Shown: positions 5,762-39,118 of the stretch, one piece after another | Position numbering within the stretch: the stretch's first letter is position 1 | How the letters are laid out: every line of letters begins with the position of its first letter | NCBI RefSeq assembly: GCF_055900595.2 | Contig: NZ_CM148325.1 | Length of the DNA stretch: 64,000 nt | Direction: 5' to 3' (one strand) | Program-made: the position numbers and the translations under genes | The notes under the pieces: generated by a model | What the model saw: the letters and a program-made list of their open reading frames with translations, nothing else | The model's database searches: none | What the model was told of the DNA's origin: nothing

Positions 5762-5788
5762 AAAAGGGGGCCATATGCAGGCCCCCTA
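5762..5788 (-). terminator. rpsB-tsf intercistronic hairpin (partial terminator/attenuator)
   Basis: Minus strand AGGGGGCC-TGCATAT-GGCCCCCT followed by TTTTT, between the rpsB stop and tsf start. Confidence 0.65.
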
Positions 5789-5960
5789 ACCAAACGTGTA
5801 CTACCTGGTCTATAAGGGCTCTCCCCCTTCATATTTCGCGCCGCAGATGCGTTGTCTTCGCTCGCTCATCCCGGTCACTTACTGATGTAAGCTCCCGGGA
5901 ATTCTCGAGCTTGCCGCCTTTCTGCAACTCGAACTATTTTGGGGGAGTTATCAAGCCTTA

Positions 5961-6908
<948 letters not shown>

Positions 6909-14215: not shown

Positions 14216-15640
14216 TTACTGCATTAACAAGTAGATGGTGCTGTCGCCGCGCTGAATGTTCAGTGCCAGCACAGACGGTTTGCTGTCGAGAACTTTACGC
14301 AGTTCAGCGATGTTTTTCACTGCCTGCTGGTTCGCACCAATAATCACATCACCTTTCTTCAGGCCGATCTGCGCAGCTGGAGTGCCCGTTTTCACGTTGT
14401 TCACCACCACGCCCTGATCTTTGCCTTTGTTGCTCATCTCAGCGCCTTCAATGCCGTTGAAGATGGTGCTGGAATCAACCTGATTCTGGCTGCTCTGCTG
14501 CAGTTCCAGGTTCACGTTAACCTGCTTCCCGTCGCGCAGTAAGCCCAGGGTCAGTTTGCTGCCTACCGGCATAGTGCCCACCTGAGCACGCAGTGCGGCA
14601 AAGCTGCTGATTGGCTTACCGTTCAGTGAGGTGATCACATCACCCGCTTTAATGCCCGCTTTCGCGGCGGAAGAATTCGGCAGAACCTGGCTTACGAAAG
14701 CACCGCGCTGGGCGTCAACTTTCATCGCTTTCGCCAGATCGGAGTTCAGCTCAGTCCCCATAATACCCAGCTCACCGCGTTTCACCTGGCCGTATTCCAC
14801 CATCTGCGAGGTCAGGTTTTTCACCATGTTACTCGGGATAGCAAAACCGATACCGATGTTGCCGCCGTCCGGTGCGAGGATCGCGGTGTTGATACCGATC
14901 AGTTCGCCGTTCAGGTTAACCAGCGCACCACCGGAGTTACCACGGTTGATCGCAGCATCGGTCTGGATGAAGTTTTCATAGTTTTCGGCATTCAGACCGC
15001 TACGCCCCAGCGCAGAGACAATCCCGGAAGTTACTGTCTCGCCCAGGCCGAACGGGTTACCAATTGCTACGGTGTAATCACCCACGCGCAGTGCATCAGA
15101 ATCCGCCATCTTAATTGCGGTCAGGTTTTTCGGATTCTGGATCTGGATCAGCGCGATATCAGAGCGCGGATCTTTGCCAACCATCTTCGCGTCGAACTTA
15201 CGACCATCGCTCAGCTGGACTTTAATCACCGTCGCGTTATCAACAACGTGGTTGTTGGTGACGACATAGCCTTTATCGGCATCAATGATGACGCCGGAAC
15301 CCAGCGCCATGAATTTTTGTTGCTGGCCGCCGCCATTACCGCCCTGGCCCCCCTGGCAGAACGGAGAGCTCTGGAACGGAGAACCTTCCTGGCAGAACGG
15401 AGAATCATCACCGAAGAACTGCTGGAAATTACGCGGCATACGCGGCGTATTAACGGTTGTGCTACCTTCTACGTTAATGCTGACCACTGAAGGCATCACC
15501 TTTTCGAGCATTGGTGCAAGGCTTGGTATCTGCTGGGCTGTCGTTGCTGAAGAAGTCTCAGCCGCCGTTGCAGAGAGCGGAGATAACGCCAAACCTAAAC
15601 TCAGAGCCAGTGCACTCAGTGCTAATGTGGTTTTTTTCAT
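14216..15640 (-). CDS. degP: periplasmic serine endoprotease/chaperone DegP (HtrA)
   Basis: 474-aa ORF, signal peptide MKKTTLALSALALSLGLALSPLSATA, trypsin-like domain and two PDZ domains. Confidence 0.92.
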   Translation of the reverse strand: MKKTTLALSALALSLGLALSPLSATAAETSSATTAQQIPSLAPMLEKVMPSVVSINVEGSTTVNTPRMPRNFQQFFGDDSPFCQEGSPFQSSPFCQGGQGGNGGGQQQKFMALGSGVIIDADKGYVVTNNHVVDNATVIKVQLSDGRKFDAKMVGKDPRSDIALIQIQNPKNLTAIKMADSDALRVGDYTVAIGNPFGLGETVTSGIVSALGRSGLNAENYENFIQTDAAINRGNSGGALVNLNGELIGINTAILAPDGGNIGIGFAIPSNMVKNLTSQMVEYGQVKRGELGIMGTELNSDLAKAMKVDAQRGAFVSQVLPNSSAAKAGIKAGDVITSLNGKPISSFAALRAQVGTMPVGSKLTLGLLRDGKQVNVNLELQQSSQNQVDSSTIFNGIEGAEMSNKGKDQGVVVNNVKTGTPAAQIGLKKGDVIIGANQQAVKNIAELRKVLDSKPSVLALNIQRGDSTIYLLMQ

Positions 15641-15685
15641 GTATTTCAGTCTCGATTAACAGATAACGCAAAATTGCTGTGTTCT

Positions 15686-31839: not shown

Positions 31840-34269
31840 TCATGAATACTTTTTCGTCCGTCGCGTCGGTGCGGTATTTGCCGGATCATCCGGCCAGACG
31901 TGTTTGGGATAACGCCCTTTCATCTCTTTTTGCACATCGCGATACGCTCCTTTCCAGAAGGCGCTCAAATCTCGTGTGATTTGCAGCGGCCTTTGGGCAG
32001 GAGAAAGCAACTCCAGCACCAGCGGCACACGCCCCTGGGCGATCGTCGGATTGGTGGCCTCGCCAAACATCTCCTGCATTCTCACCGCCAGCGCGGGCGG
32101 GTTATCTTCATGGTAACGAATGGCGATCCGGCTTCCCGTCGGCACAGTGTAATGCGCAGGCAATTCACTATCCAGACGTTGCTGCATTCCCCAATCAAGT
32201 AATCCGCGTAGCGCCTGAAAAATATCGAGTGATTTCAGGCCGCGTAGCGAATGTACCCCTGTCATATGCGGCAGCAGCCACGTTTCCAGCGTCGCCAACA
32301 AACTTTCATCATCAACCGCTGGCCAGTCATATTCCGGCAACCACTTTGCGGCGCATAACAAACGCAAGCGTAGCTGTTCCGCTTCCGCCGTCCAGTTAAG
32401 CACGCTTAAGCCTTTATCACGAACGCCGTTAAGCATCGCCTGATGCAGCTCGTCTTCTGAAGGCTTCGCCAGCGGCTGCACTTTTACCGTCAGTTGACCA
32501 ATTTGCAACCGACGCCAGGCTTTCAGCGTACCTTGCGCATCATCCCACTCCACGGTGTCCGATTGCTGCACCAGCTGCGGACAGCGTTGCACTAATTCAT
32601 CGATATCGACCGGTAGCGCCAGTAAAATCCGCGCATCCGGCGAGGCGCTACCCTGCAATAATAACGGTGCGATCAACCATTCGTGGCGGCTGAGCGCATC
32701 ATCGGCATCGAGCATTGCCCCCATGCCGTTTGCCAGTTGATAGCGCCCCTCTTGCCCACGGCGGCGAGCGATGCGATCGGCAAACGCTCCGGCAAGTAAC
32801 GGTGCGATAAGCGAACTGTCTGCCTCACCGCCGCGTACGTTTAAGCGCTTTAACAGTTGCTGGCTACGTTGCTGCCAGGCAGGTTGATTGCGCGAAAACG
32901 CCACGCCCAGATCGATATTGCCCATCCGTGGTGGCTCTTCGAGAATAGCGGCAATTTTTGCAGCGGTAGCAGCTTCGTCGTCGCTCTTTGCGCTCACCAG
33001 CATTGCCGCTAAACGCGGATCGTTACCCAGCGTCGCCATTTTCTGCCCTTTCGTGCTTAGCCGTTCACCGTCCATCGCCCCCAGCATCCGCAACAGGCGT
33101 TTCGCGGCCTGTAAATTCACGGCTGGCGGTTGATCCAGCCAGCTCATCTGCGTCGGATCGCTGCATCCCCATTGCAGTAATTCCATCAGCAAACCGGAGA
33201 GATCGCTTTGTAATATTTCTGGTTCACTTTGCGCGGAGGCGCGTTCTGCTTGTTCTTTGGCGATTAAATGTAAACAGATCCCCGGCTCCAGACGTCCGGC
33301 ACGCCCGGCGCGTTGCGTCATTGATGCCTGGCTAATGCGTTGGGTAATCAGCCGCGTTAGCCCCGTGCGCGGATCAAAGCGCGCCACACGTTCCTGAGCA
33401 CAATCCACCACCAGACGAATACCTTCGATGGTTAAACTGGTTTCAGCAATATTGGTCGCCAGCACCACTTTGCGCATCCCTTGTGGTGCCGGAAGGATCG
33501 CTTTTCGCTGATCGTTCAGCGACAACGCGCCATACAGCGGGCAGAGCAACACATCACTACCGATGCGCGAAGCCAGTTGTTCCTGCACACGCTGAATTTC
33601 TCCGACACCCGGTAAAAATAACAGTAATGAGCCGCTTTCCTGATGCAGCAATTCGGCGGTGGCAACCGCCACGGCTTCATCAAAACGCTGATGAGCGGGC
33701 AGCGGTAAATATCGGCGTTCAACCGGAAACGAGCGCCCTTCTGAGATGACGACGGGCGCTTCTGGCAGCATCTGCTGCAAGCGGTCATTGTCCAGCGTAG
33801 CCGACATAATCAGTAGTTTAAGGTCATCACGCAGCCCCTGTTGCACATCGAGTAACAGCGCCAACGCCAGATCCGCCTGCAAGCTGCGCTCATGAAACTC
33901 ATCGAGGATCACCAATCCAACGCCGCTCAGTTCAGGGTCACGCTGGATCATGCGCGTCAACACGCCTTCGGTAACTACTTCCAGGCGAGTATTTGGCCCG
34001 ACACAGTTTTGCGCGCGCATCCGGTAGCCTACCGTATCACCTGTTTTTTCGTTAAGCAGTTCCGCCAGTCGTTGCGCAACGTTACGCGCCGCCAGACGAC
34101 GCGGCTCCAGCAGGATAATTTTTCCGTTAATGCCGGGATGCGCCAGCAGTTGCAGCGGCAGCCAGGTTGATTTCCCGGCCCCGGTCGGCGCACTTAATAA
34201 CACCTGCGGTGCACCATCGAGGGCAGCAAGTAACTCAGGTAAGACGGCAGCAACGGGCAACGACGACAC
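31840..34269 (-). CDS. hrpB: ATP-dependent RNA helicase HrpB (DEAH-box)
   Basis: ORF of 824 aa; Walker A APTGAGKST and DEFHER motifs; probable GTG start at VSSLPVAAVL giving 809 aa. Confidence 0.85.
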   Translation of the reverse strand: MSSLPVAAVLPELLAALDGAPQVLLSAPTGAGKSTWLPLQLLAHPGINGKIILLEPRRLAARNVAQRLAELLNEKTGDTVGYRMRAQNCVGPNTRLEVVTEGVLTRMIQRDPELSGVGLVILDEFHERSLQADLALALLLDVQQGLRDDLKLLIMSATLDNDRLQQMLPEAPVVISEGRSFPVERRYLPLPAHQRFDEAVAVATAELLHQESGSLLLFLPGVGEIQRVQEQLASRIGSDVLLCPLYGALSLNDQRKAILPAPQGMRKVVLATNIAETSLTIEGIRLVVDCAQERVARFDPRTGLTRLITQRISQASMTQRAGRAGRLEPGICLHLIAKEQAERASAQSEPEILQSDLSGLLMELLQWGCSDPTQMSWLDQPPAVNLQAAKRLLRMLGAMDGERLSTKGQKMATLGNDPRLAAMLVSAKSDDEAATAAKIAAILEEPPRMGNIDLGVAFSRNQPAWQQRSQQLLKRLNVRGGEADSSLIAPLLAGAFADRIARRRGQEGRYQLANGMGAMLDADDALSRHEWLIAPLLLQGSASPDARILLALPVDIDELVQRCPQLVQQSDTVEWDDAQGTLKAWRRLQIGQLTVKVQPLAKPSEDELHQAMLNGVRDKGLSVLNWTAEAEQLRLRLLCAAKWLPEYDWPAVDDESLLATLETWLLPHMTGVHSLRGLKSLDIFQALRGLLDWGMQQRLDSELPAHYTVPTGSRIAIRYHEDNPPALAVRMQEMFGEATNPTIAQGRVPLVLELLSPAQRPLQITRDLSAFWKGAYRDVQKEMKGRYPKHVWPDDPANTAPTRRTKKYS

Positions 34270-34342
34270 AAAACGCTCCAGAGGGTTAACATTCTTCGCG
34301 CCACATTGTAGCATCGCGGTAATGCATAACCGAGTACCTCAC

Positions 34343-35592
<1,250 letters not shown>

Positions 35593-37188: not shown

Positions 37189-37247
37189 GCTATGATTAGC
37201 CGCTATTTTTTTGTCCTGAATGATGTTTGACACTACCGAGGTGTACT

Positions 37248-38645
37248 ATTTTTACCCGAGTCGCTAATTTTTGCCGCAAGGTGCTAAGCCGCGAGGAAAG
37301 CGAGGCTGAACAGGCAGTCGCCCGTCCACAGGTGACGGTGATCCCGCGTGAGCAGCATGCTATTTCCCGCAAAGATATCAGTGAAAATGCCCTGAAGGTA
37401 ATGTACAGGCTCAATAAAGCGGGATACGAAGCCTGGTTGGTTGGCGGCGGCGTGCGCGACCTGTTACTTGGCAAAAAGCCGAAAGATTTTGACGTAACCA
37501 CTAACGCCACGCCTGAGCAGGTGCGCAAACTGTTCCGTAACTGCCGCCTGGTGGGTCGCCGTTTCCGTCTGGCTCATGTGATGTTTGGCCCGGAGATTAT
37601 CGAAGTTGCGACCTTCCGGGGACATCACGAAGGTAACGTCAGCGACCGCACGACCTCCCAACGCGGGCAAAACGGCATGTTGCTGCGCGACAACATTTTC
37701 GGTTCCATCGAAGAAGACGCCCAGCGCCGCGATTTCACCATCAATAGCCTGTATTACAGCGTGGCGGATTTTACGGTCCGCGATTACGTTGGTGGCATGA
37801 AGGATCTGAAAGACGGCGTTATCCGTCTGATTGGTAACCCGGAAACGCGCTACCGTGAAGATCCGGTACGTATGCTGCGCGCGGTTCGTTTTGCCGCCAA
37901 ATTGGGCATGCGCATCAGCCCGGAAACCGCAGAACCGATCCCACGCCTGGCAACCCTGCTAAACGATATTCCTCCGGCACGCCTGTTTGAAGAATCGCTT
38001 AAACTGCTACAAGCGGGCTACGGTTACGAAACCTATAAACTGTTGTGTGAATACCATCTGTTCCAGCCGCTGTTCCCGACCATTACCCGCTACTTTACGG
38101 AAAATGGTGACAGTCCAATGGAGCGGATCATTGAGCAGGTGCTGAAGAATACTGACACGCGTATTCATAACGATATGCGCGTCAACCCGGCGTTCCTGTT
38201 TGCCGCCATGTTCTGGTATCCCCTGCTGGAAACAGCACAGAAAATCGCGCAAGAGAGCGGCCTGACTTATCACGACGCTTTCGCGCTGGCAATGAACGAT
38301 GTGTTAGACGAAGCCTGCCGTTCACTGGCGATCCCGAAACGGCTAACCACTTTAACGCGTGATATCTGGCAGTTACAGTTGCGCATGTCCCGCCGTCAGG
38401 GTAAACGCGCATGGAAATTACTCGAACATCCGAAGTTCCGTGCCGCTTATGACCTGCTGGCACTGCGTGCTGAAGTAGAACGCAACGCCGAGCTACAACG
38501 TCTGGCGAAATGGTGGGGTGAGTTCCAGGTTTCCGCGCCGCCGGACCAAAAAGGGATGCTTAACGAACTGGATGAAGAACCGTCACCGCGTCGTCGTACT
38601 CGTCGCCCGCGCAGACGTGCGCCGCGCCGTGAGGGCACCGCATGA
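37248..38645 (+). CDS. pcnB: poly(A) polymerase I
   Basis: 465-aa protein [15 protein letters not shown]...; in-frame ORF begins at TTG 37227 but the conserved start position corresponds to ATT at 37248 (known non-canonical AUU initiation in E. coli). Confidence 0.8.
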
Positions 38646-39118
38646 CAGTGGCGTATATTGCTATCGGCAGCAATCTGGCCTCTCCGCTGGAGCAGGTCAA
38701 TGCTGCCCTGAAGGCAATAGATGACATTCCTGAAAGCCGCATTCTTGCCGTTTCTTCGTTTTACCGCACCCCACCACTGGGGCCGCAAGATCAACCCGAT
38801 TACTTAAACGCAGCCGTGGCGCTGGAAACCTCTCTTACAGCTGAAGAACTCCTCAACCACACACAGCGTATTGAGTTGCAGCAAGGTCGCGTCCGCAAAG
38901 CTGAACGCTGGGGACCGCGCACGCTCGATCTTGATATCATGTTGTTTGGTAATCAGGTCATAAACACTGAGCGCCTGACCGTTCCGCACTATGATATGAA
39001 GAATCGTGGATTTATGTTGTGGCCGCTGTTTGAGATCGCGCCGGAACTGGTGTTTCCTGATGGTGAAACGCTGCAAGCAAGACTCACTACTTTCCCTCCC
39101 TGCCCACAGCACTGGTAA
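38642..39118 (+). CDS. folK: 2-amino-4-hydroxy-6-hydroxymethyldihydropteridine pyrophosphokinase
   Basis: 158-aa [31 protein letters not shown] overlaps pcnB stop (ATGA); C-terminal approx. 18 residues differ from the K-12 protein as recalled. Confidence 0.85.

Follow-up and report, generated by a model that had tools for sequence, protein, structure and literature searches.

The closest described counterpart of the locus analysed here is hrpB of E. coli K-12 (b0148). The two are alike in the gene itself, the GTG start, the 809-aa length of the product, the 73-bp spacer to the divergent thpR gene and the gene order mrcB - hrpB <> thpR - sfsA - dksA - gluQRS - pcnB. RNA-stimulated ATPase activity has been reported for HrpB orthologues, and the Walker A lysine of the P. 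aeruginosa protein is numbered Lys33 (PMC7237152). Both divergent transcription starts in the spacer have been mapped by 5'-end sequencing (Kim et al. 2012; PMC3415461). In K-12, the hrpB start was placed at 162077 (+) with 92 reads and a UTR of 28 nt, and the start of ligT, which is the same gene as thpR, at 162053 (-) with 19 reads and a UTR of 22 nt; in K. pneumoniae, the corresponding starts were 171989 (+) for hrpB (10 reads, UTR 29 nt) and 171967 (-) for ligT (25 reads, UTR 22 nt). The two divergent starts are thus 24 bp apart in K-12 and 22 bp apart in K. pneumoniae. Cappable-seq independently gave the K-12 start at 162077 (+) with a score of 21.3, and the rows around the locus are from the plus strand only, so the hrpB start was confirmed and the thpR start was not covered (PMC4782308). 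The same data contain another same-strand K-12 start at 161665 (+), with a score of 20.1, which is 412 nt further upstream of the hrpB start and inside thpR (PMC4782308).

Two more general systems are also close to this locus. Bacterial bidirectional promoters have divergent starts 7-25 bp apart and -10 elements that overlap through symmetric key bases; a single piece of DNA is enough for transcription both ways, and polymerase bound in one orientation excludes the other. Spacings of 18, 23 and 10 bp are preferred, and slight deviations are tolerated since a -10 element is not always equally far from its start (Warman et al., bioRxiv 10.1101/2020.01.31.928960; NAR 2026, PMC12825309). Neither hrpB nor thpR is named in the main text of these two papers. 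The other system is the mis-called long open reading frame (ORF) whose upstream ATG sits in a promoter, which is an ordinary case of start-codon reannotation. This is also the case for hrpB, which the longest-ORF rule makes too long and for which transcription start data, conservation and the Shine-Dalgarno sequence provide the correction; the only notable detail compared with other mis-called long ORFs is the conservation of the false ATG itself, which belongs to two -10 elements.

The stretch of DNA analysed here (64,000 nucleotides of contig NZ_CM148325.1, assembly GCF_055900595.2; "the window") contains hrpB on the minus strand, and its features are listed in Table 1. A 601-bp query around the site was matched in 5,424 of 5,426 complete E. 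coli genomes. RefSeq annotates hrpB as 2,430 nt from the GTG in three strains, namely the 100%-identical Z0117EC0005, whose hrpB CDS maps to 31840..34269 of the window, a K-12-like strain (hrpB at 162105..164534) and an isolate that is 87% identical over a 600-bp region; in all three (100%, 94% and 87% identical), the thpR start lies on the opposite strand, 73 bp from the hrpB GTG. The hrpB allele of the window is approximately 94% identical to that of K-12 in DNA. The spacers of the two differ at two positions, 34336 and 34324, and the difference at 34324 removes the in-frame TGA that K-12 has at -57 but does not create a start codon. The spacer of the 87%-identical isolate is exactly the same as that of the window over all 73 bp.

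Table 1 Features of the hrpB-thpR divergent region (positions in the window)
Feature	Position	Strand	Description
hrpB CDS	31840..34269	-	809 aa + stop, ATP-dependent DExH-box helicase HrpB, GTG start
hrpB start codon GTG	34267..34269	-	Plus strand reads CAC; codon 16 of the 824-aa ORF
hrpB Shine-Dalgarno GGAG	34276..34279	-	6-nt spacer cgtttt to the GTG
hrpB 5' UTR (predicted from K-12)	34270..34297	-	28 nt; transcription start G at 34297
hrpB putative extended -10 TGcTACAAT	34305..34313	-	Hexamer 34310-34305, TG 34313-34312; last hexamer base 8 nt upstream of the start
Upstream in-frame ATG	34312..34314	-	Opens the 824-aa ORF; taken as part of both -10 elements and not as a start codon
thpR -35 TTAACA	34286..34291	+	Promoter scan; 17-nt spacer to TAGCAT; 9 of 12 matches
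thpR -10 TAGCAT	34309..34314	+	Ends 7 nt before the thpR start; 2-bp overlap with the hrpB hexamer (34309-34310)
thpR 5' UTR (predicted from K-12)	34321..34342	+	22 nt; transcription start A at 34321
thpR CDS	34343..34873	+	176 aa + stop, RNA 2',3'-cyclic phosphodiesterase; ATG 34343-34345, MSEPQRLFF...; RefSeq

We very strongly infer that hrpB is translated from the GTG. The longest ORF containing the gene is 31840..34314 on the minus strand, which opens at an ATG and encodes 824 aa, and the preliminary description of this DNA had aligned the conserved N-terminus of HrpB to the GTG, proposing RBS spacing and an alignment with curated HrpB as checks. This alignment was borne out by profile searches. 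Position 1 of the NCBIfam equivalog profile NF008662 fell on residue 16 of the long ORF, which is the residue encoded by the GTG (score 1508 bits, cut-off 1053), and position 1 of the equivalog TIGR01970 fell on residue 19 (score 1268 bits, cut-off 546). The solved structures of E. coli HrpB also begin at the GTG-coded residue: PDB 6HEG is 809 aa long, and 6EUD is 812 aa long and matches from its residue 4. Translation from the GTG gives (M)SSLPVAAVLPELL..., a protein of 809 aa that contains, in RecA1, the Walker A motif APTGAGKS at residues 27-34 and the DExH motif (DEFH) within LDEFHER, with the N-terminus approximately 26 residues ahead of motif I. The Walker A lysine is then Lys33, the number used for the P. 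aeruginosa protein. This exact 809-aa sequence was found on 303 contigs of the protein collection, and the 824-aa form had been deposited once.

The ribosome-binding site pointed to the same codon. On the mRNA strand, GGAG is followed by 6 nt and then the GTG, so the spacing check turned out in favour of the GTG, and the Shine-Dalgarno sequence sits inside the 28-nt leader, as expected of a Shine-Dalgarno-led site, in which a purine-rich match lies 5-9 nt upstream of an ATG, GTG or TTG within the transcript. The best duplex with the 3' end of 16S rRNA was -6.2 kcal/mol at the GTG, against a background of -2.9 +/- 2.3 kcal/mol within the hrpB coding sequence; the best value in the 20 nt before the ATG, -2.4 kcal/mol, was no better than this background. 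Folding of 73 nt (-7.3 kcal/mol) predicted a hairpin in the leader that would partly cover the GGAG, and its paired bases are already constrained as the -35 element of thpR.

To the window we added 80 Enterobacteriaceae loci from one scan of species-representative genomes, giving 81 sequences that span Escherichia, Citrobacter, Salmonella, Enterobacter, Klebsiella, Kosakonia and Siccibacter. The aligned start codon of hrpB was GTG in all 81, while neighbouring third codon positions vary freely. A GTG at an early in-frame codon is not significant alone, and it is this complete invariance that takes it beyond chance. Every sequence also had GGAG upstream of the GTG, 73 of them at a distance of 6 nt, 7 at 5 nt and 1 at 8 nt. 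The thpR N-terminus (M[S/T/P]E..RLFF) was found 72-73 bp from the hrpB GTG in most of the 80 loci, and the spacer elements were largely kept among the 81 sequences: TAGCAT in 76, TACAAT in 76, TGCTACAAT in 74 and TTAACA in 62. The spacer is more conserved than the genes on either side, which the layout explains: almost all of its bases belong to a promoter element of one gene and at the same time to the leader of its neighbour.

The published transcription starts are those of K-12 and K. pneumoniae, and the window strain is approximately 94% identical to the former. The K-12 spacer aligns with that of the window without gaps, and positions 34270-34323 are identical, so the starts map to the G at 34297 on the minus strand for hrpB and to the A at 34321 on the plus strand for thpR. 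On this alignment, the window strain probably uses the same starts as K-12 and Klebsiella. The spacer itself occupies 34270-34342, exactly 73 bp, and reads ...gcgATGcTACAATgtggcgcGaagaatgttaaccctctGGAGcgttttGTG on the hrpB-sense strand; the end coordinate in the preliminary description, 34345, is the last base of the thpR ATG. Its claim of approximately 73 bp of shared divergent promoter therefore agrees with both the length of the spacer and the 24 bp between the hrpB and thpR starts in the published maps.

The rival starts have to be weighed against these results. ATG is the commonest start codon, and the ATG at 34314-34312 gives the longest ORF, an 824-aa protein with the 15-residue extension MLQCGAKNVNPLERF, whose N-terminal peptide would read MLQCGAKNVNPLER.... 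It lies exactly at -45, in frame, in 48 of the 81 sequences, and one deposited annotation uses it (BED47642.1 / WP_050486585.1). Its three bases are 15-17 nt upstream of the mapped hrpB transcription start, however, and it is therefore not in the main hrpB mRNA, and it has no Shine-Dalgarno sequence. The frame argues against it as well: in 27 of the 81 sequences, reading upstream from the GTG meets a stop before any in-frame ATG, GTG or TTG, as with the TAA at -18 of Klebsiella, Raoultella and Kosakonia and the TAA at -3 of Enterobacter cloacae. Even where the ATG is in frame, the extension contains a stop in 8 of the 48 cases. The motif that holds the ATG, A-TG-n-TAnAAT, is kept in 74 of the 81 sequences, but 23 of these 74 have it in a different frame from the GTG. 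Entropy by codon position was 0.38/0.33/0.55 bits in the 45 nt from the ATG to the GTG versus 0.41/0.20/1.24 bits in hrpB codons 2-101. The 45 nt thus lack the third-position excess and are not evolving as coding sequence, and they vary only near the transcription start and in the bases that separate GGAG from the GTG. With the extension also absent from the curated profiles and the solved structures, a start at the ATG is extremely improbable.

Use of both codons would be a milder version of the same idea, with the GTG as the main start and a minor 824-aa isoform made in the Escherichia, Citrobacter and Salmonella lineages by read-through from the K-12 start at 161665, which corresponds to approximately 34709 in the window. 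The Cappable-seq score of that start is close to that of the hrpB start (20.1 versus 21.3), a transcript reading through from it would carry the ATG, and in the window the frame is open from the ATG to the GTG. Such a transcript would still offer the ATG no ribosome-binding site, the extension has no selective signature and the frame is not kept across genera, which makes dual initiation very improbable. Initiation could also be placed further into the gene, as at the TTG of codon 4 (34260-34258), a permitted start codon just inside the ORF. GGAG is 15 nt away from this TTG, which is too far to work, NF008662 includes residues 1-3, and all 81 sequences have GTG at a codon whose third base would be expected to drift if it simply encoded valine, so we give this possibility practically no weight. 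As for the protein itself, initiation at the GTG predicts the N-terminus (M)SSLPVAAVLPELLAALDGAPQVLLSAPTGAGK, with the Met most likely removed before Ser. Proteomic support for a longer N-terminus, which the preliminary description had named as the finding that would speak against the GTG, was sought in the supplements of the tetracycline ribosome-profiling (TetRP) and TRAINSPOTTER N-terminomics papers and was not found; hrpB, b0148 and P37024 are absent from these supplements, and neither an N-terminal peptide nor a footprint of an initiating ribosome was found in them for HrpB. Taken as a whole, the best explanation is a GTG start for hrpB at 34269-34267, behind a 28-nt leader and a bidirectional promoter shared with thpR, and we regard this as nearly certain.

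The upstream ATG is conserved as promoter DNA and not as a codon. It is kept because it belongs to promoter DNA on both strands, where it supplies the TG of the hrpB -10 element and its complement completes the thpR -10 element. The preliminary description had stated that the longer, ATG-initiated ORF would overlap the thpR promoter, and this is right in the most literal sense, as the complement of the ATG, CAT, forms the last three bases of TAGCAT (34309-34314). A promoter consensus scan found the thpR promoter and missed that of hrpB, because hrpB has no good match to a -35 hexamer; the assignment of the hrpB promoter rests for this reason on the mapped start together with the -10 match. TGcTACAAT is conserved in 74 of the 81 sequences, and the scan found no -35 match for hrpB. 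This is consistent with its TG acting as an extended -10 that would make up for a poor -35, and the TG is also constrained by the thpR -10 element on the other strand, so that its own role is inseparable from that constraint. We also considered, and rejected as a conserved gene, a small out-of-frame ORF of 32 codons whose AUG (34292-34290) is located 5 nt into the hrpB leader. Between species this ORF varies in length from 7 to 100 codons, 20 of the 81 sequences lack the ATGTTAA motif, and its ATG is part of the thpR -35 element.

Compared with the known bidirectional promoters, the 24 bp between the hrpB and thpR starts is within the range of 7-25 bp, and the two -10 hexamers overlap in a palindromic TA (34309-34310), as they do in the preferred 23-bp configuration. 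The starts are separated by 24 bp and not 23 bp in that the hrpB start lies 8 nt past its hexamer instead of 7 nt, that is, with a longer discriminator. The 73-bp spacer is best read as a single compact sigma-70 promoter that is bidirectional. In one orientation, RNA polymerase would use TGcTACAAT and produce the hrpB mRNA from 34297 with its 28-nt leader, in which GGAG 6 nt upstream would guide initiation at the GTG and yield the 809-aa helicase; bound in the other orientation, it would use TTAACA-17-TAGCAT and produce the thpR mRNA from 34321 with its 22-nt leader. The two orientations may compete for polymerase.

The GTG start of hrpB and its reading are already known; they agree with the RefSeq and other curated annotation, the structures and the published start-site maps, and nothing here challenges current knowledge. 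The practical value is one of annotation hygiene only, as a longest-ORF reading would give HrpB 15 false residues, an error that one deposited record carries. The locus can also serve as a teaching case, in which a conserved start-like codon alone does not show that it is used. We consider it unlikely, though worth stating, that the spacer works as a single RNA polymerase site read in either direction in such a way that the expression of HrpB and ThpR is mechanically coupled, whether competing or co-tuned. Such coupling, if true, would point to a shared role of HrpB and ThpR in RNA end processing or repair across Enterobacteriaceae.

The 73-bp spacer between hrpB and thpR (34270-34342), which probably serves as a bidirectional promoter and carries both leaders, was more conserved than both flanking genes, and it was unchanged even in an isolate sharing 87% identity over the 600-bp region. 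This high conservation is explained by promoter and leader roles that overlap, on the one strand as on the other. Position 34324 was C on the hrpB-sense (minus) strand of the window and A in K-12, and this difference changes how far the hrpB frame stays open. In K-12, an in-frame TGA 57 nt upstream of the hrpB GTG closes the frame, but the window lacks this TGA, so the open frame extends 72 nt upstream of the GTG. The change at 34324 created no new start codon in the open frame upstream of the hrpB GTG.

The longest ORF also misleads for a further gene of the window, pcnB. Its start in K-12-like RefSeq annotation, transferred by CDS length, was ATT 37248 (IFTRVANF...); this is the AUU already known as a non-canonical start codon for pcnB. 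The mechanical pcnB ORF is listed below together with the RNA elements.

Features of the window with their coordinates (all three Rfam matches exceed the gathering score)
Feature	Position	Strand	Basis
CssrA sRNA	5766-5875	minus	Rfam match
t44 RNA	6714-6800	minus	Rfam match
HtrA 5' UTR thermometer	15635-15680	minus	Rfam match
pcnB	37227-38645	plus	mechanical ORF, start TTG 37227

The hrpB leader has an AUG 5 nt downstream of its 5' terminus, at 34292-34290 (minus strand). The ORF that begins there has 32 codons, is not in the hrpB frame and overlaps the hrpB start. Between species the length of this leader ORF varied widely, from 7 codons to 100, and 20 of the 81 sequences lacked the ATGTTAA motif, so we rejected it as a conserved coding sequence. 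When the 73 nt at 34297-34225 (minus strand) were folded, the predicted structure (-7.3 kcal/mol) had AGAAUGUU of the hrpB leader region paired with AGCGUUUU, which would partly cover the GGAG. In Escherichia sp. E1V33 (its locus L007, ~2470-2520), one Ser codon was lost after the hrpB start, and the region read GTGTGTCG; the distance from GGAG to GTG is now 8 nt there, and the GTG lies within a GUGUG context, a motif that has been discussed for initiation in overlapping frames (PMC9841429). On the same strand as hrpB and antisense to thpR, the published Cappable-seq map of K-12 (PMC4782308) holds a transcription start at 161665 (+), corresponding to ~34709 on the minus strand of the window, with a score near that of the hrpB promoter (20.1 vs 21.3).

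The yad fimbrial operon region (39074-46775) could not be aligned with K-12 except for one 1.9-kb stretch in the usher gene htrE, which had 66% identity. The yad fimbrial genes of the window are an allele set that differs from that of K-12. The stretch 14525-64000, about 50 kb, had only ~94% identity to a K-12-like chromosome, with ~90% in the mrcB region, and HrpB of the window was 95-96% identical to that of the species representatives of E. coli and of unnamed Escherichia species and 94% identical to that of E. albertii. Among complete E. coli genomes, only 18 of 5,424 reached 99% identity or more at the hrpB-thpR locus. Because of the ~94% identity to the K-12-like chromosome and the small number of near-identical genomes at hrpB-thpR, the source looks like a divergent Escherichia lineage that has been filed as E. 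coli.
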